A stretch of DNA of 63,488 bases from Syntrophomonadaceae bacterium (GCA_036725705.1 DAIMDR010000001.1:1-63488); one strand, 5' to 3'; numbered from the stretch's first letter, positions 4,207 to 27,679 are shown. Made by a program: numbers and translations. The notes: generated from the sequence alone by a model not told the origin.

Positions 4207-5214
4207 TTAGCAGATGCGGGGGACATGTTCCCCTTCCAGCATACCCAGAATACGGTCCGCCCCTAATTCAGTTTCAATCAGCACCATTCCGGTCGGTTCA
4301 GTACAAACTTCACCTATAATGGCAGCGTTAATGGTTGGCGACAGTTTACGCAAATCGGCCAGGATCTCATCCGCCTTTTCTGCAGCTGCAAACATGACCA
4401 TTTTACCTTCATTGGCCATATAAAGCGGGTCCATCCCCAACATATCACAGGCCGCCCGGATTACTTCCGAAACCGGAATGCTGGATTCCTTCACCCGGAT
4501 ACCCACTCCGGCCTGCTTCGCTATCTCATTCAAAACTGTTGCCAGACCTCCCCGGGTTGGGTCACGCATACATTTTATGGCCTGTCCGTACTTATCAGTC
4601 ATTTCTCCTAACTGATAGAGAGGGGTACAATCACTTAAAGCTGGAGTAGTGAAACTTAATCCTTCCCGCTGGGCCAGTATGGCCAGTCCATGATCACCTA
4701 CATAACCGGTAACGATTATTTTATCTCCGGGATTTACTCTTTGTGGTCGGTAATCTATGCCTTCAGGAATAATACCTATGCCGGTGGTATTTATAAATAT
4801 TCCATCAGCACTGCCTTTTTCCACTACTTTGGTATCTCCGGTTACCAATTTTACTCCGACCTCCTGAGCAGTTGCTGCCATAGAATCTGCTATTTTGCGC
4901 AGGTCTGATAACGGAAATCCTTCCTCAATGATGAAAGCAGTAGACATATACAGCGGTTTGGCACCGCAGGCCACCAGATCATTTACGGTTCCGCAAATGG
5001 ATAGTTTGCCAATATCCCCGCCCGGAAAAAATAACGGGGTGATAACAAATGAATCAGTAGACATGGCCAGTCGGCCGGCTGTTATATTCAGTATGGCACT
5101 GTCCAGCATTTCCATTAATTCATTATTCCAGGCAGATTTAAATATTTCATCTATCAACTGCTGACTCATTAAACCACCACTACCATGTGCCATTAAAATT
5201 CTTTCCTGCTTCAT
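4207..5214 (-). CDS. hypE: [NiFe] hydrogenase maturation protein HypE
   Basis: 335 aa with a PurM/AIR-synthase-like fold, an N-terminus MAHGSGG and the diagnostic C-terminal PRIC motif. Confidence 0.93.
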   Translation of the reverse strand: MKQERILMAHGSGGLMSQQLIDEIFKSAWNNELMEMLDSAILNITAGRLAMSTDSFVITPLFFPGGDIGKLSICGTVNDLVACGAKPLYMSTAFIIEEGFPLSDLRKIADSMAATAQEVGVKLVTGDTKVVEKGSADGIFINTTGIGIIPEGIDYRPQRVNPGDKIIVTGYVGDHGLAILAQREGLSFTTPALSDCTPLYQLGEMTDKYGQAIKCMRDPTRGGLATVLNEIAKQAGVGIRVKESSIPVSEVIRAACDMLGMDPLYMANEGKMVMFAAAEKADEILADLRKLSPTINAAIIGEVCTEPTGMVLIETELGADRILGMLEGEHVPRIC

Positions 5215-13368: not shown

Positions 13369-13716
13369 TCAGTCTCCTTCATAATAATCCAGATACAGCT
13401 CCCGTCCCTGGATTATATCTACCTGATTTGAGCCACATCCCGAACAGACGAATATATGCTGTTCCTGGCGGGTAAACAGCTGCTGACACTGCTGGCAACT
13501 GCATATAACTTCCTTTTCCTCTATTTCCAGAACTGCTCCCTGAAACAGGTCTTCGCCGGCACTGATTACCTCAAAAGCAAACAGCATACTATCCGGCAGG
13601 ACCATGGACAACTTGCCTACCACCAATCCGACTTTGCTGACCTTGCTGATGCTATTCGCCGCGGCACTGTCTCTGACTGCATCCATTACTCCCTGCATTA
13701 ACGCCAGTTCATGCAA
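13369..13716 (-). CDS. hypA: Hydrogenase nickel-insertion protein HypA
   Basis: 115 aa with the N-terminus MHELALMQ (the Ni-binding MHE motif) and the zinc site CSCQQC ... CSGCGS. Confidence 0.92.
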   Translation of the reverse strand: MHELALMQGVMDAVRDSAAANSISKVSKVGLVVGKLSMVLPDSMLFAFEVISAGEDLFQGAVLEIEEKEVICSCQQCQQLFTRQEQHIFVCSGCGSNQVDIIQGRELYLDYYEGD

Positions 13717-13764: not shown

Positions 13765-13956
13765 AAAAAAAATCCAGCAACGAAATGCTGGACTCCTTAG
13801 CGCACCAATATTAACCTGATATCTTTCATAGATATCCTTATCAGCCGCCTGACTCAGCATCTCCTTTTCACAATGGAAGGCACACTCGTTTCCCAATGCA
13901 CCCAATAACCTGATATCATAGTGTTCATCACCTGCAGATACTCAGGCTCGGAGAAT
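13765..13956 (-). promoter_or_regulatory. Riboswitch-like leader unit B (hypA-proximal): Moco/Tuco-like core plus intrinsic terminator
   Basis: On the minus strand the core spans 13956-13860: ATTCTCCGAGCC...ATGATATCAGGTTATTGGGTGCA...TGTGCCTTCCATTGTGAAAAGGAGATGCTGAG. The 5' TCTCC can pair with the 3' GGAGA. The terminator TCCAGCA-TTTCGT-TGCTGGA plus T8 spans 13793-13765, 49 nt before the hypA ATG. Confidence 0.6.
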
Positions 13957-13975
13957 AGCTCCTTATAATGTTTCA

Positions 13976-14188
13976 TAAAATAATCCGGCAACGAAATGCC
14001 GGACATCATAGCACACCAATATTAAACATGATACCTTTCTTAGGTACACTTATCAGCTGCCTGAACTCAGCATCTCCTTTTACAATTAAAGGCCCACCCG
14101 TACTTGTTTTCACAATACACTTTTTCTCAGTGTGGCCTATGGCCTGATAATATCAGTGTTCATCACTTTATATTCAGACCGGGAGAAC
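13976..14188 (-). promoter_or_regulatory. Riboswitch-like leader unit C (distal): Moco/Tuco-like core plus intrinsic terminator
   Basis: On the minus strand the core spans 14188-14073: GTTCTCCCGGTCT...GATATTATCAGGCCATAGGCC...GGGCCTTTAATTGTAAAAGGAGATGCTGAG. It carries an extra internal hairpin (ACAC-TGAGAAAAA-GTGT). The terminator TCCGGCA-TTTCGT-TGCCGGA plus TTATTTT spans 14004-13976. Confidence 0.55.
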
Positions 14189-14415
14189 AGAGTATTATTT
14201 TTTAATTAGATCAGTATACTATCTTCGTTAAAAGATATAAAACTCCTGCAAAAAAAGACTTATTCACAATTTTTATTTAAAATTAACATATTTTAGTTTT
14301 TATTATCTTTTTTTATAGTTTATATTAATTATTATAATATTAACTACATAATTATATCAAGAGGGAAATAAGGTGCAAGGGGAAATGGACAACAGGACTT
14401 TGAGGCTGCTAAAAT

Positions 14416-14615: not shown

Positions 14616-15431
14616 CTAGCCATGAACATAATAATGGTTATGTTCTTCTTCCCCATGAACATGACAGTATTCATCAATCAGATTAACTGACATCAGCAGG
14701 GACTTATTGGTCAGAGCCTCATGGCTGGGTCCGTCAAAGACCAACTGATGATCTTCCGACAGTACCAGAGCGCGTTTGGATATGGCATGGGCAAGTTCCA
14801 GATTATGCGTAGCGGTTATTATGGTTCTTCCCCTTTTATTCAGTTCCAGCAGCAATTCAATTAACCAGCGCTGGGTTTTAGGATCCAATCCATTAGTAGG
14901 TTCATCGAGAATCAATACCTCGGGATTAAGAATTAATGTGGAGGCCACTGCCACCTTTTTCTTTTCTCCTCCACTCAGGTGATAAGGCGAGCGATCTGCC
15001 AGGCTTTGTAAATTAAGCAGGTTAAGCACATCTTCTACCCGGGAAGCTATGTCCTGCTTGTTTAACCCCAGTTGCCGGGGTCCATAAGCTATCTCATCCC
15101 AAACCCGGGTGTTAAAAAGCTGGGCTTCAGAATTCTGAAAAATAAAACCTACCCGACGATGATATCTTTGAGCAACCCGGTTATCTTCCATAAGGCCTTC
15201 ACTTATTTCCTGCCCAAAAGCATATAAACGACCGGCGCAGGGAAAAGCCAGACCGCAAAATATCTTTAATAAAGTTGATTTTCCTGAGCCATTGGCGCCC
15301 AGCAGGCAGACACTCTCACCGCCCGCTATCTTCAGACTCAGATTATTAAAAAGATTATCCCCGCTACCATAACTAAAGGCAATTCCATCTAAAACAAAAA
15401 CAGTATTATTCAAAAAAAGAAGGCCTCCCAT
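14616..15431 (-). CDS. cbiO: ECF/CbiO-type ABC transporter ATP-binding protein (cobalt/nickel importer ATPase)
   Basis: Walker A GANGSGKST, signature LSGGEKKK and Walker B LILDEPT are present. The start is uncertain. The ATG at 15431 gives a family-typical N-terminus, whereas the track ORF uses a TTG at 15473 that overlaps cbiQ. Confidence 0.85.
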   Translation of the reverse strand: MGGLLFLNNTVFVLDGIAFSYGSGDNLFNNLSLKIAGGESVCLLGANGSGKSTLLKIFCGLAFPCAGRLYAFGQEISEGLMEDNRVAQRYHRRVGFIFQNSEAQLFNTRVWDEIAYGPRQLGLNKQDIASRVEDVLNLLNLQSLADRSPYHLSGGEKKKVAVASTLILNPEVLILDEPTNGLDPKTQRWLIELLLELNKRGRTIITATHNLELAHAISKRALVLSEDHQLVFDGPSHEALTNKSLLMSVNLIDEYCHVHGEEEHNHYYVHG

Positions 15432-15465
15432 GCAAGCAAGTTCAATTACTAAAAACTTAGCATAT

Positions 15466-16350
15466 CTAAGCAATTAGTTCCAGTTGCCCGCATTCATCCA
15501 ATACTGCTTCGGGAATTGATCCGGTATAACAACGGGCGCACATGGCCTGATATACTTCCTCGGAAAGATTCATACTGCGATCAAATAGTGCCGCTATGGA
15601 AGATCCCACCTGGGCTTGCCGGCTTCGAAGCGCCAGATGTCCAACTGTACGAATTTTGCGGGCTTCAAACATTTCAATGGAAATTGACAGCAATACCATC
15701 AGATAGCGGTAGGTCATTTCCAGAATCATAATGAATAAATCCGGTACCCGCAAAACCCGTAACGATTTAAATATATCGGTTACCGGGGTAGTCATAATCA
15801 GCAATACACCCAGTGATAACGACAACCCCACCCGTAAAAACAAAAAGGTTACGGAGATGACCCCCTGCCGGCTTATAAAAATTGTCGCCGGCCAGTTTAT
15901 GCCCAGCCAATGGCCGGGCTGTTCAGATTGAAACAATACTATAAGCGGGGTACCGTCAATAAAAATATTAAGAGTCATGGGCATGGTAAAAAGCAATGTA
16001 ATGAGGGGAATAAATCCCCAAATTCGCTTCTGCATCATCAGAACCGGTAACCGGGAAAGATGCATAAGCAACATCGTCATTAATAACATAGCGAGCAATA
16101 CCGGTATCTGCCTGCTCAGACTAATTCCCAGAATAAGAATGATCATACTGACTAATTTCAGTTCAGGGCTAAATTTTTGTAATAGTCCATCACGTTTGGC
16201 CATATGCTCAGTTTGCATAGCTTCACAAATAACCTTACGCATATTGCGGATACTTTTAATCAGGTAATGGTTATTACCGGTTTTAAATGCAGTTGGGTTT
16301 TTATCTTTAAAATCAGACTCATTCATCCAGTCCGGAAGCAACATGCCCAT
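15466..16350 (-). CDS. cbiQ: ECF transporter transmembrane (T) component, CbiQ/NikQ-like
   Basis: 294-aa polytopic membrane protein located between the M/N components and the ATPase. The C-terminal region shows the conserved Arg-containing coupling-helix pattern (EARKIR). Confidence 0.8.
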   Translation of the reverse strand: MGMLLPDWMNESDFKDKNPTAFKTGNNHYLIKSIRNMRKVICEAMQTEHMAKRDGLLQKFSPELKLVSMIILILGISLSRQIPVLLAMLLMTMLLMHLSRLPVLMMQKRIWGFIPLITLLFTMPMTLNIFIDGTPLIVLFQSEQPGHWLGINWPATIFISRQGVISVTFLFLRVGLSLSLGVLLIMTTPVTDIFKSLRVLRVPDLFIMILEMTYRYLMVLLSISIEMFEARKIRTVGHLALRSRQAQVGSSIAALFDRSMNLSEEVYQAMCARCYTGSIPEAVLDECGQLELIA

Positions 16351-16367
16351 AACCCTTTCAATTATAT

Positions 16368-16682
16368 TTAATCTCTGACTACTTTGTATAACAGGCTGAC
16401 CACGGCTACCACCAGAGCTACACCAACTATTGCCGATAAAATATAACCACCGGCTGATTGTATAAAAGTAGCATCCATACCTGGAATGGCATAATCAGGC
16501 AGTGGACTTAAGGTCCAGATCTCAGCAAATCTTTCCAAACCGGCCGGAATAAAACCGACCTCCCCGGGTAATTCATCCAGGCCCCATTCACCAAATGCTG
16601 TTCCGGTTGCTAATAAACCCAGGGGGGATAAAATTATAAAGGCTCCCAGGACCAGCCATAAATTACGATAGCTTTTAAACAT
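16368..16682 (-). CDS. PDGLE-domain small membrane protein (CbiN/NikN-like partner of CbiM/NikM)
   Basis: 104 aa with two TM helices flanking FGEWGLDELPGE...PLPDYAIPG (PDGLE-type motif). The start overlaps the cbiM stop. Confidence 0.7.
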   Translation of the reverse strand: MFKSYRNLWLVLGAFIILSPLGLLATGTAFGEWGLDELPGEVGFIPAGLERFAEIWTLSPLPDYAIPGMDATFIQSAGGYILSAIVGVALVVAVVSLLYKVVRD

Positions 16683-17397
16683 GCTTCTCTACCCCCAGAT
16701 CATCAATTTTCACGCCATTGGAAAACCTCTGCGCCAGTACGGCCGGATAATTTTTACCCACAAACCATAAACCAGCTGCTGTTACTAATCCCTCTACCGG
16801 ACCGGCCAGGATCAGATGTTCACTCATCATGGCTATCACCGCCACCTTCAAAGGGACCGGAAAGAATAAAGGAGTCCCGTCAGCCGCCTGAAACAGATGG
16901 TACTGAGAGCCAAATTCCACCGCTGTAAATAAAGCGGCTATATTTAATCCAACATAACCGGCAATAAAAGCTGCTGCCATCGCCCGCCCCGACAGATTAT
17001 CGGCATTGCCTTTAATCAGCCTGTAAGTCAGATATCCCACCCAGGGCATGATAAAAGCCATATTAAAACAGTTCGCCCCCACAGCCAGGACACCACCGTC
17101 GCCAAATATTAAAGCCTGAATTATCAAGGCCGTAGACACACCTATACAGGCTGCCCACGGCCCAAGAAGTATGGCCAGCAACACTGCTCCTACCGCATGA
17201 GCCGAGCTTCCTCCCGGTATAGGAAGATTGAACATCATAATCGTAAAAGAAAAGGCTGCTCCAATAGCCAGTACCGGGATATCTTTCTTTTTAACTTCCG
17301 ACTGCACTTTCTTTACCGCAATTCCCCAGAGTGGAACCATGGCAACTACAAAAGGAATAGCTGTTTGCGGACTTAAATAACCATCCGGTATGTGCAT
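16675..17397 (-). CDS. cbiM: CbiM/NikM substrate-capture component of a Co/Ni ECF importer; probably nickel-specific given the flanking hydrogenase genes
   Basis: The N-terminus MHIPDGYLSP is the metal-chelating N-terminus typical of CbiM/NikM. 240 aa, polytopic. The RBS is AAGGGAGGG. Confidence 0.88.
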   Translation of the reverse strand: MHIPDGYLSPQTAIPFVVAMVPLWGIAVKKVQSEVKKKDIPVLAIGAAFSFTIMMFNLPIPGGSSAHAVGAVLLAILLGPWAACIGVSTALIIQALIFGDGGVLAVGANCFNMAFIMPWVGYLTYRLIKGNADNLSGRAMAAAFIAGYVGLNIAALFTAVEFGSQYHLFQAADGTPLFFPVPLKVAVIAMMSEHLILAGPVEGLVTAAGLWFVGKNYPAVLAQRFSNGVKIDDLGVEKHV

Positions 17398-17452
17398 TAT
17401 AATCCCTCCCTTAATTTAATCCGGTAAAAGAAATGTTTCCTTTTTTAAACCA

Positions 17453-17573
17453 GACAAAAAACCATGAAGGCATTAACCCCACTGGTCGGTTAATACCTTC
17501 ATGGTAATGATAAAAAACTAATTGGTTTTTAAATAAAAGGAAACTTATTTGAATAACTGCACCTTCATGGTGC
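17453..17573 (-). promoter_or_regulatory. Leader with terminator/antiterminator alternative structures upstream of cbiM/nikM
   Basis: On the minus strand an 18-bp terminator stem ACCATGAAGGTATTAACC/GGTTAATGCCTTCATGGT plus T5 spans 17505-17453. An upstream hairpin GCACC-ATGAA-GGTGC (17573-17559) carries a third copy of CCATGAAGG, which could compete for the terminator 3' arm. Confidence 0.5.
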
Positions 17574-17669
17574 CATTTAAGCCTTTTATTCTACATTTTC
17601 AACAAATCCCCTGCCCGATAACCGGTTTTATGTAAATATTTCTTTTATTTAATAATAATCAGAGTTAAC

Positions 17670-17698
17670 TTGTCAGCTATAAAAATTGATGTTAAACT
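17670..17698 (+). promoter_or_regulatory. Candidate sigma-A-type promoter for the hydA leader
   Basis: -35 TTGTCA (17670-17675), a 17-nt spacer and -10 TAAACT (17693-17698) with an extended TGT. It lies about 180 nt upstream of the riboswitch-like core, so the assignment is tentative. Confidence 0.3.
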
Positions 17699-17877
17699 GG
17701 CATAAAAGCAAATATTTATACTTACTATTATTATATAACATAACATGAAGCAGTATGAAACTGCTTTAAAGCAATGCTTCTACCAAACCATTTCCTGCTG
17801 ACCTGCCTTAACAAAAAGCAGGTTGTCCTCAAAATATATCCATGAAGGATTAAATGTAACCAGAATTTAATAGCACC

Positions 17878-18065
17878 ATTCTCCGAGCCTCTTGGTCTAA
17901 GGCACTAAAAGCTATGATTATCAGGCCATTGGGTTCATGAGCAAACTTATGGGCCTTCCATTATGTAAAGGAGATGCTTAGGTTAGATTATTTGCATAGA
18001 CCTGGATTTTTAAAAGTTCCTGGCTTTGTAAAAAATGGCCGGCATTTCTGTCGGCCATTTTTATT
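17878..18065 (+). promoter_or_regulatory. Riboswitch-like leader unit A: Moco/Tuco-like core plus intrinsic terminator upstream of the [FeFe] hydrogenase operon
   Basis: The core spans 17878-17976: ATTCTCCGAGCCTCTTGGTCTAAGGCAC...ATGATTATCAGGCCATTGGGTTCAT...ATGGGCCTTCCATTATGTAAAGGAGATGCTTAG. The terminator ATGGCCG-GCATTTCTGT-CGGCCAT plus TTTTATT spans 18031-18065. It is paralogous to units B and C, including the CATTTC terminator loop. Confidence 0.6.
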
Positions 18066-18269: not shown

Positions 18270-19439
18270 TTGAGCACAGCTACATTAACAGACACAGAGA
18301 TCATTAAGATAACTAACAAATGCAAAGCCTGTGATCACTGTACTTCTGTGTGTCCGACCGGCGCTGCTAAAGGCCTTCTCGGGCAAAAACATTATATTGA
18401 TTATAAAACCTGTATAAACTGTGGACAATGTCTGATCAACTGTCCTTTTGGCGCGATTACTGACAGTAGTACCGTAGATCAGGTTAACCAGGCCCTGAAA
18501 GACCCCGGTAAAACAGTAATCGTTCAGGAAGCTCCTGCTGTCCGGGTAGCACTGGGAGAAGAATTTGGACTGCCCATCGGCACCAATGTCAAGGGCAAAA
18601 TGCATGCTGCTTTGCGTAAACTGGGTTTTGACAAGGTATACGATACTGAATTTGCTGCTGACCTGACTATTATGGAAGAGGGCACCGAATTGATTCACCG
18701 GGTATTTAAAATGGCCGGAGTAGCAGGTTTCGAGGATAGAGGGCCATTGCCCCAGTTTACATCCTGTTGTCCTGCCTGGATTAAATATGCTGAAGATAAA
18801 TACCCGGCCGTACTGCCACATTTATCATCGGCCAAGTCTCCGCAGCAAATGTTTGGAGCCATAGCCAAAACCTATGCAGCCAAAAAGCAGGGAGTTAATC
18901 CAGCTGATATGGTATCCGTGTCAGTTATGCCCTGCACCGCCAAAAAATATGAATCCGAGCGTCCCGAAATGATAGCCAGCGGCTTTAAAGATGTTGATTA
19001 TGTAATAACTACCCGTGAATTGGCCTCCATGATTAAGGATGCCGGAATTGATTTTGCAAACCTTCCGGATGAAGAAGCTGATAAGCTAATCGGTTCTTCT
19101 ACCGGTGCAGCTACCATTTTCGGAGTTACCGGTGGAGTTATGGAAGCCGCCTTGCGTACTGCCTACGAAGTTCTCAGCGGAGAAAGCCTGGATAAAGTAG
19201 AGTTCAAGGCGGTACGCGGTATGCAGCCGGTGCGTGAAGCTACCGTGGAAATTCCCGTCAAAGATTTGGGGATAACCTTACCGGTCAATGTCTGTATAGT
19301 AACCGGTACCAAATATGTTGATAAAGTAGTTGAGGATGTAATAGCCGGTCGCAGCAACTATCACTTTATTGAAGTGATGAACTGCCCGGGCGGATGTATC
19401 AATGGCGGTGGTCAGCCCATTCGTCATGAAATGTATTAG
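18270..19439 (+). CDS. hydA: [FeFe] hydrogenase large (catalytic) subunit, periplasmic HydA type
   Basis: Two N-terminal ferredoxin-type [4Fe-4S] motifs (CKACDHCTSVCP and CINCGQCLINCP). The H-cluster motifs TSCCPAW, MPCTAKKYE and EVMNCPGGCINGGGQP are present. A TTG start follows the RBS GGAGGAGGG. Confidence 0.9.
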   Translation: MSTATLTDTEIIKITNKCKACDHCTSVCPTGAAKGLLGQKHYIDYKTCINCGQCLINCPFGAITDSSTVDQVNQALKDPGKTVIVQEAPAVRVALGEEFGLPIGTNVKGKMHAALRKLGFDKVYDTEFAADLTIMEEGTELIHRVFKMAGVAGFEDRGPLPQFTSCCPAWIKYAEDKYPAVLPHLSSAKSPQQMFGAIAKTYAAKKQGVNPADMVSVSVMPCTAKKYESERPEMIASGFKDVDYVITTRELASMIKDAGIDFANLPDEEADKLIGSSTGAATIFGVTGGVMEAALRTAYEVLSGESLDKVEFKAVRGMQPVREATVEIPVKDLGITLPVNVCIVTGTKYVDKVVEDVIAGRSNYHFIEVMNCPGGCINGGGQPIRHEMY

Positions 19440-19455
19440 GAAAGGAGGAGGGCTA

Positions 19456-19815
19456 ATGAGTATTTTTAAAGAAAAATCAGTATTTACCCGCCGACAGTTC
19501 CTGATAGGTTCAGGCATGCTGGCGGCTACTGCAGTTATAACCGGCATATTTGCCAAGTTTGGCTTTGATGCTTATGCGGTAAGTCAAGACTATATTGCCA
19601 AAAGAGCTGCTGGTCTTTATAATCTCGATGAAAAAATGGCCATAAGGAAATCCCATGAAAACCCTGAAATATTACAGATTTACAAAGACTTTTTGTCACC
19701 GGGAGAGGTTAGCCCGGTGAGTGAAAAAGCTCATCATCTCCTGCACACCAAATATGGCAGGGAAATCCCTGCTATGATTGAAGAATTACATGCTCACCGG
19801 CATGATGCGGCGTAG
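19456..19815 (+). CDS. hydB: [FeFe] hydrogenase small subunit with a Tat signal peptide (HydB type)
   Basis: The ATG at 19456 follows AAAGGAGGAGGG. The N-terminus is MSIFKEKSVFTRRQFLIGSGMLAATAV, a twin-arginine signal. The 119-aa size matches Desulfovibrio-type small subunits. The track ORF start at 19402 lies inside hydA. Confidence 0.8.
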   Translation: MSIFKEKSVFTRRQFLIGSGMLAATAVITGIFAKFGFDAYAVSQDYIAKRAAGLYNLDEKMAIRKSHENPEILQIYKDFLSPGEVSPVSEKAHHLLHTKYGREIPAMIEELHAHRHDAA

Positions 19816-19826
19816 GAGGTAATAAT

Positions 19827-20486
19827 ATGAGCGAAATTAATGGAAAAGTACTTAAACACGGTGAACAAACCCGAACCATGCACTGGGTGCATATGATAGC
19901 TTTCATTATCCTGGCCTTGACCGGTATTGGTTTCTACTTTGATATCGGCTTTATTGCCGGAATTTTTGGCGGCGAAGCCAACTCTTCCCTGGTTCATCGC
20001 TGGGCGGGAGTAGTATTTACCGTTGGTCCTGCTCTTTATATTTTATTAAACTTTGAACGCTTTGCCCGGTTTATGAATACTATCGCTACCATTACCAAAG
20101 ACGATATCGGCTGGCTGAAAACCATGGGAGGCTATATTCCTTTCCTGAAAGGAGAAGTACCGCCGCAGGATAAATATAATGCCGGCCAGAAAATGCTGGG
20201 GCATTTAATCATTATTGGCTGCCTGCTGATGATACTGACCGGTTTCCCCATGTGGTTATGGCGGGCAGTAGTACCAGCCGCCTTTTTGGCCTTTTGTTAC
20301 AATATTCATTTTTGGGTGGCGGTGATATTGATTCTGGCCATTGCCGGTCACTTTTTCCTGGCAGCTATTCACCCCAAATCCAGAGTGGAATTTGCTTCCA
20401 TGATGATGGACGGCTATATTGATGCCGAAATCAGTGCCCATCACAACGAAAAATGGTTTAATAGTTTGCAGGAAGTAAAAGAATAA
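19827..20486 (+). CDS. b-type cytochrome membrane subunit (FdnI / hydrogenase cytochrome b family)
   Basis: 219 aa with four TM helices, the motif RTMHWVHMIAFIILALTGIGFYF and conserved His residues in the helices. It lies 11 nt after hydB. Confidence 0.8.
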   Translation: MSEINGKVLKHGEQTRTMHWVHMIAFIILALTGIGFYFDIGFIAGIFGGEANSSLVHRWAGVVFTVGPALYILLNFERFARFMNTIATITKDDIGWLKTMGGYIPFLKGEVPPQDKYNAGQKMLGHLIIIGCLLMILTGFPMWLWRAVVPAAFLAFCYNIHFWVAVILILAIAGHFFLAAIHPKSRVEFASMMMDGYIDAEISAHHNEKWFNSLQEVKE

Positions 20487-21199: not shown

Positions 21200-23506
21200 C
21201 TATATGTGTTCTTCCAAAAGTTTCAGAAACAGGTCTGCCAGGCGGGGTTCAAACTGTGTTCCACTGCAACGTATTATCTCGGCTTTAGCTTCTTCATGCG
21301 ACATGGCCTTACGATAGGGGCGGTCATTGGTCATGGCATCATAGGCATCGGCCAGAGCCAGAATACGACATTCCAGAGGAATATCTTCACCAGCCAATCC
21401 CAGAGGATAGCCTTTACCGTCCCACCATTCATGGTGCATGAGGATTAGATCGGCCAGAGGGCTTAGTTCCGGTGAAGCCAGAGCAATGCGTTGTCCAATT
21501 TCAGAGTGGCGCTGCATTTCCAGATATTCTTCCGTAGTAAGCCGATCCTCCTTGAAAAGAATCCGGTCCGGTACTCCCACTTTACCAATATCATGAAACT
21601 GAGCCAGCAGTCGCAGAGTAGTAAGAACACTGTCAGCCAATCCCAAACCTCTCCCCAGCAATACTGCCAGCACCTGCATTCTTTCCCCATGACCTTCAGT
21701 AATAAAATCTCTGGCCTCCAGAGCTTTCAATAAAGTATGTACAACCGCACTGCGGGCACTTCGGCTGTGGTGAAGCTTAATGCGATTCATATAGTCATCG
21801 GCATCCTTGTAGGTTTCCCGCAGAGATACAGCCGGATCTTCTCTTACTGCTATACCAATTGACAGGCTCAACGGAAGCTCAGGATTGCTATTATTGAATT
21901 CAGTTATTTTTTCCTGTATGGATGCTGAAACTCCTTCAAGACTTTCCCGGTCCATATTGGGAAGCAGGACGGCAAATTCATCCCCGCCAACCCTGGCAAT
22001 TATTTCTTTTTTAAACACTTCCTGTAATATATGCGCAGTTTTAACCAGCAAACGATCTCCCGCCTCAACTCCCATAGTATCATTAACCAGTTTTAATCCA
22101 TCCAAATCGAGCATTATTACTCCGACTGGAATTATACCGGCGTTATCCAGACGGCTTATTTCCTCATCAAAATAAGTGCGGTTATATAAATTGGTTAATG
22201 GATCATGTACACTTAAATAGCGCAGCTCCTCTTCCAATTGCTTGCGCTCGGTAATATCACGGCTGCTAAGTATTATTCCGGTTACTTTTCCATTCTGAAC
22301 AATAGGATTTCCCAATGTTTCCGTCCATATATAATGCCCTTCCGCATGTTGGCAGCGATGATGACTGGTGGCAGGTGCTCCTGTTATCAGAGCATTTTTT
22401 AGAGCGCGGGCTATACTCCGCATATCATCCGGATGAACAAAATCAACGAACATCATCTTTTTCATAACTTCAATCGGATATCCCAATACTTTAAAATGTG
22501 AAGGACTCACATACACCAGATTACCTTTGGCATCCAACTCACTTACCAGATCCAGCATATTATCAGTTATACGGCGAAGGTTGCTTTCACTTTCGCGCAG
22601 GGCTTCCCGGGCTTTTATATCCTCGGTAATATCATCGGCCAACACCATTCCGCCGACAATACGGCCATTTTCTCTTAAAGCAGCGGAATTAATCTTTAAA
22701 AACTTCTTGCTGCCGTCCTTGTGCCTTACCGGTAAAACATAAGTTGATGAATCTCCGGTAGTTAATCTTCTTTTAATCTCTTTTTCTATCCATTCCCAGT
22801 CTTCATCGGGAAATAGTTCCCGGGTACGGAAAGTGCCGATTACTTCATCGGGTCGGTAACCAATTATTTCAAAGCACTTTTTATTAATAAATGTCAGACG
22901 GATATCCTGATCAAAGGTATAAAACAGCTCGTTCATATTATCAATCATGGTTTTATTAAACTCCAATTGCTTACGCAACTGCTGCTCAGTTTTCTGCAAG
23001 GCCTCATACTGCTGGCGCAATTCCTCTTCAGCCGCCATTAATTGCTGAAAGGCCGCTTCTGCCTGCTCGTTAGCCGCCTGGGAGCTATAATCCAGGGCAA
23101 CTACAAAACCGTTATCCCGCAATATCTCTATAGCGGCAATAATATTACCGTTGTGATCAAATATGGGGGAAGCCTTGGCCCAATAATAGACGCTTTTCCC
23201 AGTAGAAGCGACATTGATATGTCCCTCTTTGTACAAATCATCACCCTCGCGACGAAAACTCCGGTTAAATTCAGTTTCCAGAGCAGGTTCCAAAATCAAA
23301 TCAGCCAGTACCGGGCCAGGAGTGCCATAAAAATTCATGGCACAATAGCTGCTGTCCTTTCCCAGTATTTCCTCGCGGGGAATTTGAGAAATTTTTTGCA
23401 GCTGTTTGTTCCAGACAACAATTTTATGATTAGAATCAATAACAAATACAGGATCGGGAATAGAGTCCAAAATGTTCAGAAATAATTCTGTTTCTAATTC
23501 TTTCAT
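21200..23506 (-). CDS. Multi-PAS sensor with GGDEF and HD-GYP domains (c-di-GMP synthesis and hydrolysis)
   Basis: PAS/PAC repeats and a coiled-coil linker are present. The GGDEF site is RVGGDEFAVLL. The HD-GYP domain has HDIGKV ... HHEWWDGKGYP. The ATG at 23506 has the RBS GGGAGAG. Confidence 0.88.
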   Translation of the reverse strand: MKELETELFLNILDSIPDPVFVIDSNHKIVVWNKQLQKISQIPREEILGKDSSYCAMNFYGTPGPVLADLILEPALETEFNRSFRREGDDLYKEGHINVASTGKSVYYWAKASPIFDHNGNIIAAIEILRDNGFVVALDYSSQAANEQAEAAFQQLMAAEEELRQQYEALQKTEQQLRKQLEFNKTMIDNMNELFYTFDQDIRLTFINKKCFEIIGYRPDEVIGTFRTRELFPDEDWEWIEKEIKRRLTTGDSSTYVLPVRHKDGSKKFLKINSAALRENGRIVGGMVLADDITEDIKAREALRESESNLRRITDNMLDLVSELDAKGNLVYVSPSHFKVLGYPIEVMKKMMFVDFVHPDDMRSIARALKNALITGAPATSHHRCQHAEGHYIWTETLGNPIVQNGKVTGIILSSRDITERKQLEEELRYLSVHDPLTNLYNRTYFDEEISRLDNAGIIPVGVIMLDLDGLKLVNDTMGVEAGDRLLVKTAHILQEVFKKEIIARVGGDEFAVLLPNMDRESLEGVSASIQEKITEFNNSNPELPLSLSIGIAVREDPAVSLRETYKDADDYMNRIKLHHSRSARSAVVHTLLKALEARDFITEGHGERMQVLAVLLGRGLGLADSVLTTLRLLAQFHDIGKVGVPDRILFKEDRLTTEEYLEMQRHSEIGQRIALASPELSPLADLILMHHEWWDGKGYPLGLAGEDIPLECRILALADAYDAMTNDRPYRKAMSHEEAKAEIIRCSGTQFEPRLADLFLKLLEEHI

Positions 23507-23710
23507 GTGCACTCTCCCATTTAATAACAGATGGCAGCTGTTATTAGTAAATAGAAAATTCTACTTGCTTTGACAAATATCCTTCTAATACTTCAATATT
23601 TTCGTAATTTTTAATTTAAAACTTGAATAAATAATATACTTATATAACCAATAAGAATAATACAGGCTCATATAAATATAGAGTTTCAGGGTAAAATAAT
23701 TAAGGTTTGA

Positions 23711-24922
23711 TTATTGCATGGCATTATTGAAATGGGCATAGTCCAGGGCTACCCGGTTACGACCATTTCTTTTAGCCCGGTACAAAGCTTTATCTGCTCT
23801 TTCTACCAGGATGCTGGCGGGAATATTATGGGGAAAAACTGTAGCCACACCTAAACTGATGGTTACCTGGTTATAAACGGGTGAATAAGCATGAGGCAGG
23901 GACAGATTAATGATTTGTTGACGCAGGCTTTCTGCCAGCATGGCAGCTCCTTCCAATTCGGTCTCCGGCAATAATATGGCAAATTCCTCACCGCCATAGC
24001 GGGCTACCAGATCAGTAGGCCTTTTTACTCCGTTCTGCAATGCCTGCGCTACCCGGTGCAAACATTTATCTCCATTTAAATGACCATAGTTATCGTTATA
24101 AAGCTTAAAATTATCTATATCAACAATAATCAGGGATAGCGGCGTATTATTGCGCCTGCCTCGCAGCCATTCTCCGTTAAGCTGTTTATCAAAATAGCGG
24201 CGGTTGGCAATACCGGTCAAAGTATCAACTATACTATGTTCAACTAATTTACGGTGTAATTTTTCCACCTGATTCATACCGTAATTTATACTGACAAAAG
24301 TAATAAATATCCCCGTCAGTACTGCCACTATAGCACTTAGAGCCGCGACTGGCTGAGTATAAATGGAACTGCCCGGGTAAATAAGGGCAGGTGTTAACGG
24401 AATAGCTCCGCTTACTTCCATAATTGCCACCAGCGTAAATAAGGCTCCTCCCATTATGGCAGTATAAAGTGCATAGCGATAATTTAGAAATACCCGGTAT
24501 AAAGCTACGGCAACAATTATAAACATGGTAGCATAAGAGGTCAATGAACCGGCCATATAAAGAACCAGTTGATTGATACCTAATTCTATCAGGATACTGG
24601 TACAGGTTAATTGTTTTATAAGCTCATTTTTTGATTTAACAATATTAATCAGGATATTGGCCGATATATATACCAGAACCATAAATACCCAGATAGCCAG
24701 AATAACTCTTTCAACCTGGGTTTGGCCCCCCTGCCCCTTAAAAGTACTCATTGCTATAAATGAGATTAGAAATATAAGTGGAAAAACAATAACCAGGCGT
24801 ACGCGTGCCGCTATCAGGAGACGCCGGTTATGTACTTCCTCTGAACCAATAGAAGTTAAAAACTCCTGATAGAGCTTATTATTTTTGCTGGATAAATCAG
24901 ACCCCATGCTATTCTCCGCCAT
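23711..24922 (-). CDS. Membrane-anchored diguanylate cyclase (GGDEF)
   Basis: About six N-terminal TM helices, then a GGDEF domain with RYGGEEFAILL and a C-terminal YRAKRNGRNR. Confidence 0.88.
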   Translation of the reverse strand: MAENSMGSDLSSKNNKLYQEFLTSIGSEEVHNRRLLIAARVRLVIVFPLIFLISFIAMSTFKGQGGQTQVERVILAIWVFMVLVYISANILINIVKSKNELIKQLTCTSILIELGINQLVLYMAGSLTSYATMFIIVAVALYRVFLNYRYALYTAIMGGALFTLVAIMEVSGAIPLTPALIYPGSSIYTQPVAALSAIVAVLTGIFITFVSINYGMNQVEKLHRKLVEHSIVDTLTGIANRRYFDKQLNGEWLRGRRNNTPLSLIIVDIDNFKLYNDNYGHLNGDKCLHRVAQALQNGVKRPTDLVARYGGEEFAILLPETELEGAAMLAESLRQQIINLSLPHAYSPVYNQVTISLGVATVFPHNIPASILVERADKALYRAKRNGRNRVALDYAHFNNAMQ

Positions 24923-25072: not shown

Positions 25073-25855
25073 TTATTTTCCGATTCCGGCCTTACCCCTG
25101 CTCAGATTGTGCATAACCAACATAATCTGATTACGGTCTTCCATCTTCAGGGCATTCTCCAGTCCACCACAATCCAGATTCATGTTAATGGCTTCCTTAG
25201 TAAGCCGCATGGCCATATAATCCTTGGCTACCATCAAATTGGCCAGTTCCAGAGCCGCCTCAGTAAGTTGATCACGCTCCACGCATTTGGATACAAAGCC
25301 TAGGGCTACGGCTTCTTCCGCACTCATAAAACGACCGGTCAGCATAAATTCATAAGCCCGTCCGGCACCAATTAAACGGGGCAGAAAATAGCTGCAACCC
25401 ATATCAGCCCCGCCCAGACCAACATTTACATAAAAAGCCGAAAAACGGGCATCCGTAGAAATTACTCTGATATCTGAAGCCATGGCAAAGCTGAAACCGG
25501 CTCCGGCAGCTGCACCGTGTACCACCGCAATTATGGGTTGGGGAATCTGGCGCATAGCCAATTGCAGTCTGCCCAACCGGCTTTGCCAGTCATACAGATA
25601 ATAAGTATTGGCATTTTCCGGATCTATAGGTTCAGATAAATCCAGTCCTCCGCAGAAACCTTTGGACTCCGGAGAACCGCGCATGATTACTACCCGAACC
25701 TTCAGATCGTGACGCAGCCTGGCCCACAGATCGGACAATTCATCCAGCATCAGATTGTTGACTGAATTAAGTTTTTCCGGACGATTCAGCGTCAGCCACA
25801 GGATTCCCTGTTCATCAACCTCGGTCAGCAGAGTCTGGTAATTAAAATCAGCCAT
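25073..25855 (-). CDS. Enoyl-CoA hydratase/isomerase (crotonase) family protein
   Basis: 260 aa with the crotonase-fold oxyanion-hole segments GGLDL and AVVHGAAAGAGFSFAMASD. Confidence 0.88.
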   Translation of the reverse strand: MADFNYQTLLTEVDEQGILWLTLNRPEKLNSVNNLMLDELSDLWARLRHDLKVRVVIMRGSPESKGFCGGLDLSEPIDPENANTYYLYDWQSRLGRLQLAMRQIPQPIIAVVHGAAAGAGFSFAMASDIRVISTDARFSAFYVNVGLGGADMGCSYFLPRLIGAGRAYEFMLTGRFMSAEEAVALGFVSKCVERDQLTEAALELANLMVAKDYMAMRLTKEAINMNLDCGGLENALKMEDRNQIMLVMHNLSRGKAGIGK

Positions 25856-25882
25856 CTTGTTTCCTCCCCTTTTATTTAAATC

Positions 25883-27679
25883 TTATAGGAATACTTCCAG
25901 AGGTATGTCGCTCATAAAGCCCTCATTACGGGTAAGGATCGTGCACATTGTATTAATCCGGGGCATTTCATAATCGAAATAATACTGCATGGTGATTATT
26001 TTTCCCTCATAAAAATCCTTATCCACAGAGGAATTATTACTGTTCAGCGCCGAGCATGCTGCCATACCCTGCAATAGCCATTGCCAGCCAATAGTCAGTA
26101 TACCCATCATTTCCAGATACAAAGAGGCATCACTGAGAAATCGCCCCGTATCCCCCTGCGATGCGGCCTGCAATAAATGGGATGTTACCTGATCAACCCT
26201 GGTCATGGCCTCTTCCAGAATTTTCGCCGCCGGTTTCAGGTTATTAATTTCTACAGCTGTATTTATGGTTTTGATCAATTCCTCTTTAAATAAATGGTAG
26301 GCCTGACCTTTTTTCATAATAACTTTCCTGCCCAGCAAATCCTGGCCCTGTATACCGGTAGTACCTTCATGAATGGGGTCAATGCGAATATCGCGGTAAT
26401 ATTGCTCCACGGGAAAATCTTTGCAATATCCATAACCGCCCAGACACTGAATAGCAGCACTGGTAGCCAATATGCCCATTTCCGAAGGGTAAGTCTTCAC
26501 TACCGGTACGAGGAAATCAACCAGCAGTTCGTTATTTTCCGGTTCTTTACCAGCTTTGACCAGATCTATATATTTACTTACCTGTAAACCCAATGCCAGT
26601 GCCCCTTCAGCTATGGCCCGCTGAAACATCAACATACGTTTTATGTCCGCATGATTGATAATTGCTATTTGTGGGGACTCAGGATTCTTATCATTTAGTT
26701 TTCTTCCCTGTAATCTCTGCTGTGCGTATTCCAAAGCTGCATAATAAGCGGCAGTAGCCTTTGAGGTTGCTCCTATCCCCACATTAACCCGTTCTTCATT
26801 CATCATCTGGAACATGTAAGCCAGACCTTTATGGGGTTCACCAATCAAATAACCTCTGCAACTGCCGTTGTCACCCATGGATAACTGGCAGGCGGGACAT
26901 CCCTTGTAACCCAGTTTATGCTCAATACCGGTACAAAATATATCATTGGCCTGTAAATTACCGGCTTCATCTATATAAAGCTTCGGAACCAAAAAGAGTG
27001 AAATTCCTTTAACCCCGGAAGGTGCACCTTTAATTCGGGCCAGCATCATGTGCACCGTATTATCAGTAGCATCAGTACTGCCGCCGGTAATAAATATTTT
27101 TTGTCCCTTAATAAGAAAATACCCCTGTCCGCTGTCTTCAGCGGAAGTTTTCACATCCGCCAGTGAACTGCCGGCATTGGGTTCGGTAAGGGCCATGGTT
27201 CCCTGCCACTGCCCGGCCAACATAGGTTTCAGATACAAATCCTGCAACTCTTTGGAGCCAAAGTTCACCAGCAGATTGGCTGCTCCGGCAGTCAGCTGCG
27301 GATAGGCTGATAAAGAATAATTGGCTGCTCCCATAATAAAAGTAATTACTGTATTTATTACACTGGGCAGTTGTTGTCCCCCAAATTCATAACTGGCACC
27401 CGGATTAATCCATCCGCCGGCACCACATTCCTGCATGTAAGTACGGACCACCGGATGCACCCGCGCTATACCGTCTGCATAAACCGGCGGGTTGGAATCC
27501 ATATCCTGAAAAACCGGATACATTACACCGGTGCCCAACTTGGATATCGTATCAATAATTAATTCAAAAGTATCCCGGCTGTGATCCTGAAAATACTCAT
27601 AGTTACATAAATCTTCCGCCTGTAATACTTCATAAAGCATAAACTGAATATTGCGTCGGCTGAAAAACTGTTGCGCCAT
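25883..27679 (-). CDS. Long-form acyl-CoA dehydrogenase
   Basis: 598 aa with ACAD middle and C-terminal domain patterns (TEPNAGSSL, QCLGGYGY, IHEGTTGIQ) and an extra C-terminal helical extension. Confidence 0.88.
   Translation of the reverse strand: MAQQFFSRRNIQFMLYEVLQAEDLCNYEYFQDHSRDTFELIIDTISKLGTGVMYPVFQDMDSNPPVYADGIARVHPVVRTYMQECGAGGWINPGASYEFGGQQLPSVINTVITFIMGAANYSLSAYPQLTAGAANLLVNFGSKELQDLYLKPMLAGQWQGTMALTEPNAGSSLADVKTSAEDSGQGYFLIKGQKIFITGGSTDATDNTVHMMLARIKGAPSGVKGISLFLVPKLYIDEAGNLQANDIFCTGIEHKLGYKGCPACQLSMGDNGSCRGYLIGEPHKGLAYMFQMMNEERVNVGIGATSKATAAYYAALEYAQQRLQGRKLNDKNPESPQIAIINHADIKRMLMFQRAIAEGALALGLQVSKYIDLVKAGKEPENNELLVDFLVPVVKTYPSEMGILATSAAIQCLGGYGYCKDFPVEQYYRDIRIDPIHEGTTGIQGQDLLGRKVIMKKGQAYHLFKEELIKTINTAVEINNLKPAAKILEEAMTRVDQVTSHLLQAASQGDTGRFLSDASLYLEMMGILTIGWQWLLQGMAACSALNSNNSSVDKDFYEGKIITMQYYFDYEMPRINTMCTILTRNEGFMSDIPLEVFL

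Follow-up and report, generated by a model that had tools for sequence, protein, structure and literature searches.

A P3-less Moco-family riboswitch pair with one divergent aptamer in the leader of hypA and a [NiFe] hydrogenase operon of a Syntrophomonadaceae bacterium

The window, i.e., the whole stretch of DNA analyzed here (63,488 nucleotides, GCA_036725705.1 DAIMDR010000001.1:1-63488), comes from a Syntrophomonadaceae bacterium, a family assignment with which its HypA homologues agree. On its minus strand, hypA is followed on the 3' side by hypB, the small and large subunits of a NiFe hydrogenase, a b-type cytochrome, a maturation protease and hypFCDE, down to about position 4207 (ORFs and Pfam). 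Directly 5' of this hyp/hydrogenase operon lies an ECF transporter of the CbiM/PDGLE/CbiQ/CbiO type, probably for Ni uptake. The 900-nt gap between hypA and the transporter houses, all on the minus strand, a promoter-like site, two RNA units (A and B) and both of their hairpins. Another unit (C) is found on the plus strand, 5' of an [FeFe] hydrogenase operon that is divergent from the nik/cbiMNQO operon and encodes a large subunit with ferredoxin domains, a small subunit with a Tat signal and a b-type cytochrome, i.e., a Hyd2-like enzyme. The features are as follows.

13369..13716, minus strand: hypA, the first regulated gene, with a TTG start at 13716-13714 (ORFs, Pfam)
13730-13723, minus strand: hypA ribosome-binding site, GGGAGGAA
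13765..13793, minus strand: predicted terminator B, stem GUCCAGCA/UGCUGGAU with loop UUUCGU (hairpin 13793-13772), then 8 U (terminator scan)
13811..13852, minus strand: linker of unit B from P1 to the terminator, with two hairpins, a small one at the tail (UGCU/AGGC) and a central one (GAUAUCU-AUGAA-AGAUAUC)
13845..13965, minus strand: unit B aptamer, P1 formed by UCUCC (13954-13950) and GGAGA (13864-13860), P4 with a GAAA tetraloop
13975..14004, minus strand: predicted terminator A, stem GUCCGGCA/UGCCGGAU with loop UUUCGU (hairpin 14004-13983), tail UAUUUUAU (terminator scan)
14064..14192, minus strand: unit A aptamer, a diverged P3-less copy of the Moco family, P1 formed by UCUCC (14186-14182) and GGAGA (14077-14073)
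14250..14213, minus strand: promoter-like region directly 5' of unit A, with a TTTATA-17-TATACT match at 14241-14213 (consensus scan); putative function
14250-14238, minus strand: block TGCAGGAGTTTTA, overlapping the TTTATA-17-TATACT match
14616-17397, minus strand: CbiM/PDGLE/CbiQ/CbiO ECF transporter, with a 12-bp hairpin at its end
17869..17991, plus strand: unit C aptamer, a P3-less paralogue 5' of the periplasmic [FeFe] hydrogenase operon
18035..18065, plus strand: predicted terminator C, AUGGCCGGCA-UUUC-UGUCGGCCAU followed by UUUUUAUU, -15.9 kcal/mol
18270-20486, plus strand: hydA-hydB-cytochrome b operon (Pfam Fe_hyd_lg_C, Fe_hyd_SSU and Ni_hydr_CYTB)

Units A and B are spaced 211 to 213 nt apart (direct-repeat families D1-D3). 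The first-pass annotation had described two consecutive units, each made of a core, a GC hairpin and a run of U, and its positions and motifs proved correct both in the minus-strand reading and in the direct repeats. The genes that it had placed under their control (hypAB, the [NiFe] hydrogenase and hypFCDE) are indeed those found downstream, and the paralogous unit C does precede another hydrogenase. A TGCAGGA..TTT block is present at the equivalent place in the hypA leaders of four relatives (L001, L130, L134 and L135, see below), and the window version, TGCAGGAGTTTTA, might serve either as a binding site for a regulator or as the -35 region of the promoter of the leader; the version in L135 reads TTGCAG-17-TAGAAT. 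The hypA start codon is TTG in the window and ATG in L001, the HypA proteins being 86% identical. The window also carries genes for fatty-acid oxidation (beta-oxidation), namely, an acetyl-CoA transferase, an enoyl-CoA hydratase and a long acyl-CoA dehydrogenase, and, near the hydrogenase loci, a PAS-GGDEF-HD-GYP protein and a GGDEF protein (594-1943, 25073-27679 and 21200-24922, minus strand). PAS/GGDEF/HD genes likewise adjoin the hydA operon of S. palmitatica (L139). No Mo/W genes that would confirm the use of the cofactor by the organism were found within the window.

At the gathering threshold, the Rfam model RF01055 gave two matches in the whole 63-kb window, unit B (48.1 bits, E 2.1e-08; gathering score 36) and unit C (62.5 bits, E 1.3e-12). 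The positions of the P3 hairpin of the model are deleted in each of them, and just 3 to 4 bases join P2 to P4; the P3 stem is missing in all of the 15 units that we aligned (see below). The units of the hypA leader are therefore of the P3-less Moco-RNA type, the form proposed for the tungsten cofactor (Tuco/Wco) by Regulski et al. in 2008 on the basis of gene association (PMC2408646). P4 is capped by a GAAA tetraloop in unit B and, on a stem longer by 23 nt, in unit A, while the P4 loop of unit C is an AAA-containing one (GCAAAC). A receptor-like CU(G/A)..UAUG element is seen in units B and C, and its UAUG half is absent from unit A. An association with genes of W/MPT metabolism was not found at these loci, where the downstream genes are hypAB, the NiFe hydrogenase, hypFCDE and the [FeFe] hydABC. 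Other RNA families were considered as well. The NiCo riboswitch had no match across the window at the Rfam gathering threshold, and the region 5' of the nik/cbiMNQO operon (17398-17868) contained neither this nor any other known RNA family. For lack of an Rfam hit, we discarded a riboswitch for Ni/Co, or for another metal, both for the nik operon and for the hypA leader. Weak matches to snoRNA and sRNA families in the hypA leader (E 0.9 to 5.6) are far under the gathering scores and were attributed to chance.

The fold was assessed on an alignment of 15 complete units, each comprising aptamer and platform. Standard pairs make up 90.8% of the cells in the helices of the aptamer and the terminator; of the 40 pairs, 13 show changes in both partners, mostly in P2 and P4. 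An independent RNAalifold run gives the helices P1, P2 and P4, the terminator and the central hairpin of the linker, with covariation; for the linker, its consensus has covarying pairs at columns 166-182 and conserved ones at 136-150. None of 500 column shuffles reached the observed pairing values, a control that overstates significance, since the units share ancestry through descent and duplication. More telling evidence is provided by sliding the partner strand by 1 to 3 columns, which leaves 37 to 47% of the cells paired, and by the pairs of P2, P4 and the terminator in which both bases have changed. The closing stem between TCTCC and GGAGA that had been pointed out from the sequence corresponds to P1 in units A and B, and the compensatory-type stem change between unit B and unit C is a real GU-to-UG change in P4 (columns 74/113). 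The terminator scan also found a hairpin with a U-rich tail for both unit A and unit B, in agreement with the separate terminators described before.

Unit A is a different matter. When 851 nt were searched with permissive filters, the RF01055 model returned nothing for it (14192-14064), not even at E<=10. We built a clade-specific covariance model (R1) from the 14 sister units, leaving unit A out. With this model, unit A scored 55.6 bits (E 2.8e-14) and units B and C 112.9 and 98.1 bits, the latter two values being high by construction since both units are in the training set; nothing else in the window rose above 12 bits. The score of unit A makes it a true, though poor, homologue. The earlier description of both units as complete and Moco-like thus applies to unit B, while unit A fails to match RF01055, and membership in the family, direct for units B and C, extends to unit A only by homology through R1. 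Nor is the suggestion of two full units in series supported, since nucleotides lost by unit A are invariant in its 14 sister units.

Out of 83 columns that are nearly invariant among these sister units, unit A deviates in 14, with 13 of these lying in the aptamer. J1/2 reads CCCGGUC for CCGAGCC (CGG in place of GAG), the base of P4 reads GGCC for GGGU, and CCUUCC is replaced by CCUUUA. The 23-nt insertion in P4, which retains the GAAA cap, includes AUUGUGAAAA (14116-14107, minus strand), which occurs without any change as the P5/junction element in unit B (13874-13865, minus strand). For this reason, the insertion looks like an ectopic copy or duplication within the array, i.e., a rearrangement rather than a designed insertion. 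With respect to the orthologous leader in L001, aptamer A has 77% identity and 26 gap positions, compared with 90% for platform A, 91% for aptamer B and 93% for platform B. The U-tract of terminator A (UAUUUUAU) is interrupted. On the other hand, P1, P2 and an extended P4 with its GAAA cap still form in the fold of unit A, whose antiterminator is intact. An assembly error does not account for its features, because the leader of L126, from another metagenome, is identical to that of the window over its full reading, unit A included, and L127, from a further one, gives a single RF01055 match at the position seen in the window leader (HypA of L126 and L127 is 99% identical to that of the window). 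Taken together, unit A has probably lost or weakened its sensing, which we consider roughly twice as likely as full function, a changed specificity being given a small chance. It may still work, given that P1, P2, the extended P4, the platform (90%) and the antiterminator have been kept.

Loci of relatives were gathered by a HypA search of genome contigs (five loci, most of them ending inside the leader) and by look-ups of contigs with the exact protein. The gene order, with cbiMNQO followed by a long leader and then by hypAB and the NiFe hydrogenase, is conserved in them, and seven other Syntrophomonadaceae loci, belonging to five distinct relatives, have one to three RF01055 units (36.8 to 69 bits) in the leader between cbiMNQO and hypA; they are listed here together with a further locus, L132:

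L135/L136: three units before hypA (69, 69 and 63 bits)
L134: three units before hypA (46, 58 and 57 bits)
L130/L131: two units before hypA (66 and 63 bits)
L001: two units before hypA (65.6 and 64.1 bits)
L132: one unit detected before hypA (59 bits), with an assembly gap in the leader
L002: one unit before hypA (36.8 bits)

Clear tandems of two or more aptamers are thus present in L001, L130, L134 and L135, and the window leader has two terminators and two antiterminators with aptamer A divergent. The hypA leaders of the more distant L003 and L004 had no RF01055 units. Before hydA-hydB-cytochrome b, two units each were found in S. erecta (L137) and S. palmitatica (L139) with 58 to 62 bits by model R1, and none upstream of hydA in Thermosyntropha lipolytica (L138). 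The weakest unit of the L134 array is its first one (46 bits), which, together with unit counts that go from one to three, suggests that the arrays of the hypA leader expand and decay. Five contigs (L001, L002, L128, L129 and L133) end a few hundred bases 5' of hypA, and the leader of L132 contains a gap of N and a repeated fragment from the 5' end of hypA (2440-2545). Repeated riboswitch units probably break assemblies, and therefore the unit counts in metagenome-assembled genomes are lower bounds. A metagenome scan with a pattern of 14 specified bases (AAAGGAGATGCTNAG) gave, among the matches listed, chance occurrences only, none of which had a Moco core upstream.

These arrays bear on the possibility that both window units are fully working sensors of one cofactor, forming a true "pseudo-cooperative" tandem with two checkpoints and a steeper dose-response. 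Tandem or triple arrays in which all units score high are the rule in the relatives, there is a published precedent in S. wolfei (PMC2408646), and unit A retains P1, P2, the GAAA-capped P4, terminator and antiterminator, and is backed by two independent metagenome assemblies, L126 with an identical leader and L127 with its RF01055 match at the same position. However, the failure of RF01055 to detect it at E<=10, the changes at invariant or nearly invariant positions of the 14 sister units (GAG to CGG in J1/2, UAUG, and CCUUCC to CCUUUA) and the confinement of the divergence to aptamer A, flanked by segments that are 90 to 93% identical, make us regard two working sensors as rather unlikely.

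As for the switching mechanism, every unit contains a predicted second pairing that would compete with both P1 and the terminator. In unit A, 14000-13993 (GGCAUUUC) can pair with 14076-14069 (GAGAUGCU), with a duplex of -10.3 kcal/mol versus -13.6 for the hairpin; in unit B, 13790-13782 (CAGCAUUUC) pairs with 13863-13855 (GAGAUGCUG), with -11.0 versus -12.1 kcal/mol. The same target, GGCAUUUC, is held by terminator C at 18041-18048. Overall, the antiterminator duplexes range from -9 to -11 kcal/mol and the terminator hairpins from -12 to -16 kcal/mol. The loop of a terminator is normally free to vary. Here, GCAUUUC, which comprises the end of the 5' strand of the terminator and its loop, is invariant in 15 of 15 units, the AUUUC of the loop included, and so is GGAGAUGCU, which spans the P1 3' strand together with its tail. 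The resulting 8-bp antiterminator (GAGAUGCU:GCAUUUC) is kept in every one of the 15 units, and in a test of 9 pairs, 94.8% of the cells were paired versus 38 to 45% after sliding. Because both strands are invariant, it shows no covariation, and the antiterminator is a prediction supported by conservation and folding only. When transcripts cut at the terminator loop were folded, its probability was 0.84 to 1.00 in 14 of the 15 units (0.58 in unit C), with P1 open; in full-length folds, the terminator predominates in 10 of the 15 units and P1 likewise in 6 of those 10.

Another alternative pairing had been suggested, from a core segment that is repeated in the expression platform. The repeat exists in unit B, where the 12-nt GATATCAGGTTA occurs exactly at 13917-13906 and 13823-13812, but it is absent from the units of the relatives. 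For that reason it is not a conserved switching element and was ruled out as such; the conserved mutually exclusive pairing is that of GAGAUGCU with GCAUUUC.

The mechanism we propose is that of an OFF switch. Without ligand, GAGAUGCU would pair with GCAUUUC, the terminator would be blocked and RNA polymerase would read on; in unit B, the central linker hairpin would draw the antiterminator strands together. With ligand bound, P1 would be locked and GAGA withheld from the antiterminator, so that the terminator could form and transcription would stop before hypA. This predicted design agrees with the OFF behavior shown genetically for the Moco RNA of E. coli moaA (PMC2408646). The units might instead be ON switches, or the hairpins might not be terminators and might act, e.g., in translational or RNA-stability control. 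The last terminator lies 50 to 200 nt from the start codons, and both the terminators and the OFF direction are predictions made from sequence. However, in 15 of 15 units one conserved strand serves both P1 and the antiterminator, as is classic for OFF switches; a GC hairpin leads into a run of U in every unit; and the hypA ribosome-binding site (13730-13723) is outside any pairing conserved in RNAalifold. We hold ON switching, or hairpins with another role, to be very improbable.

Returning to the OFF switch, unit B would be the canonical sensor. Unit A would be a duplicate whose aptamer diverged fast in this lineage and probably lost or weakened its ligand binding, with mostly read-through as its default; if it mostly reads through, one effective checkpoint remains. 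Unit C would control the neighboring Hyd2-like periplasmic [FeFe] hydrogenase by the same OFF logic. With plentiful pterin cofactor (W/Mo), the membrane and periplasmic hydrogenases and the Ni-insertion machinery would be turned down, which would plausibly favor formate dehydrogenase as the electron outlet in a fatty-acid-oxidizing syntroph. To this reading as a whole, i.e., a two-unit OFF-switch array before hypA with unit B canonical and unit A weakened or lost, unit C acting alike and a net logic of less H2, we give a probability of about 60%. What we infer in it is the identity of the ligand, the way in which regulation runs in vivo, how far unit A still functions and what the switch would be good for physiologically. 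The simple rationale of hydrogenase off and formate dehydrogenase on is incomplete, since the same RNA type precedes a membrane formate dehydrogenase in S. wolfei (Swo-1-11 in the supplement of PMC2408646).

The ligand itself could be another one, either for all the hydrogenase-linked P3-less RNAs or for unit A alone, e.g., a pterin precursor or some other metal-related metabolite, and the connection to hydrogenases would in that case stem from this ligand. Going by Pfam, there is no user of Moco or Wco among the controlled genes, the Tuco/Wco ligand of the P3-less type is itself a proposal from gene association (PMC2408646), and the changes of unit A hit conserved junctions, where specificity would be set. 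Against this, units B and C and most units of the relatives reach 46 to 69 bits on RF01055 (36.8 in L002) and keep the conserved junction nucleotides, and the same type of RNA is found in S. wolfei before genes for tungstate transport, MPT synthesis and formate dehydrogenase. The variant of unit A, moreover, is known from one lineage, and its insertion resembles an ectopic copy of the neighboring element. We find a different ligand improbable. Were it unit A alone that had changed, the leader would become a two-input gate, specifically a NOR gate for, e.g., the W-cofactor and the Mo-cofactor or a pterin precursor. Such a changed-specificity aptamer, for which the altered J1/2, the lost tetraloop receptor and the longer P4 of unit A would be the basis, is a slim prospect; if true, the gate would sit atop a cofactor-sensing switch between H2- and formate-based electron disposal in a syntroph.

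A cofactor-sensing OFF switch, as in our preferred reading, would be relevant for the physiology of these microbes. In Syntrophomonas, the Hyd2 [FeFe] hydrogenase and the membrane Fdh2 are two candidate outlets for reverse electron transfer, and which of them dominates differs between laboratories and has been termed "growth condition dependent" (PMC5101538, PMC3582634). Riboswitches are not mentioned in these two papers on S. wolfei physiology. The [FeFe] hydrogenase of the window is orthologous to Hyd2, and an OFF switch of this kind on hyd2, hypA and the [NiFe] hydrogenase would offer a concrete cause, the supply of tungstate or molybdate. In addition, the presence of one, two or three units in related genomes, with a decaying copy in the window, would represent a small case of gain and loss of tandem riboswitches.

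The first-pass annotation had considered that this could be an unreported regulon, yet it had already been catalogued. The annotation "nickel and zinc binding hydrogenase" is, we take it, frequently given to HypA. Sherlock et al. described in 2022 tandem Wco riboswitches before genes annotated as "ferredoxin hydrogenase" and "nickel and zinc binding hydrogenase" (PMC9481103). The supplement of Regulski et al. had listed S. wolfei Swo-1-8/Swo-1-10 as two RNAs in series followed by Fe_hyd_lg_C, Fe_hyd_SSU and FdnI, and S. wolfei has at least 15 copies of the RNA, P3-less units and arrays of two or three among them, with a terminator after each (PMC2408646). The link of the P3-less riboswitch to hydrogenase genes is real but already catalogued in Syntrophomonas. 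The locus of the window shares with these cases the bacterial family, the RNA subtype, the serial units with their own terminators and the classes of downstream genes ([FeFe] hydA-hydB-cytochrome b and hypA). It differs from them in belonging to an uncultured Syntrophomonadaceae lineage, in the hydA leader, which has one unit and not the two of S. wolfei hyd2ABC, and in having a degenerate or altered copy among its two hypA units.

Within RF01055, the window units resemble the Tuco/Wco subtype in the scores of units B and C above the gathering score, in the deleted P3, in the set of P1, P2, P4 and P5, in the GAAA tetraloop on P4 of unit B and in the predicted intrinsic terminator that follows, with an OFF-type design. 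Unlike that subtype, they precede hydrogenase and Ni-maturation genes and not genes for cofactor synthesis, transport or pterin enzymes, and unit A is below the detection of the Rfam model. The NiCo riboswitch (czcD motif) is likewise metal-related and could be expected near Ni-handling genes, but is without a match in the window. The RNA class, the tandem arrangement and the placement before hydrogenase genes are all known from the riboswitch literature, so that the locus adds low discovery value. Homology, a covarying fold, terminators, a conserved antiterminator and an arrangement kept in relatives are observed here. Tandem TPP riboswitches, as far as they are described in the papers that cite Welz and Breaker 2007 (PMC2408646, PMC9481103), are similar in having two aptamer-terminator modules per 5' UTR, both of which have to be passed; compared with arrays of that type, the upstream aptamer of the window is probably impaired, for which reason a steeper, "digital" response is doubtful at this locus, while it is plausible in the relatives with two or three intact units.
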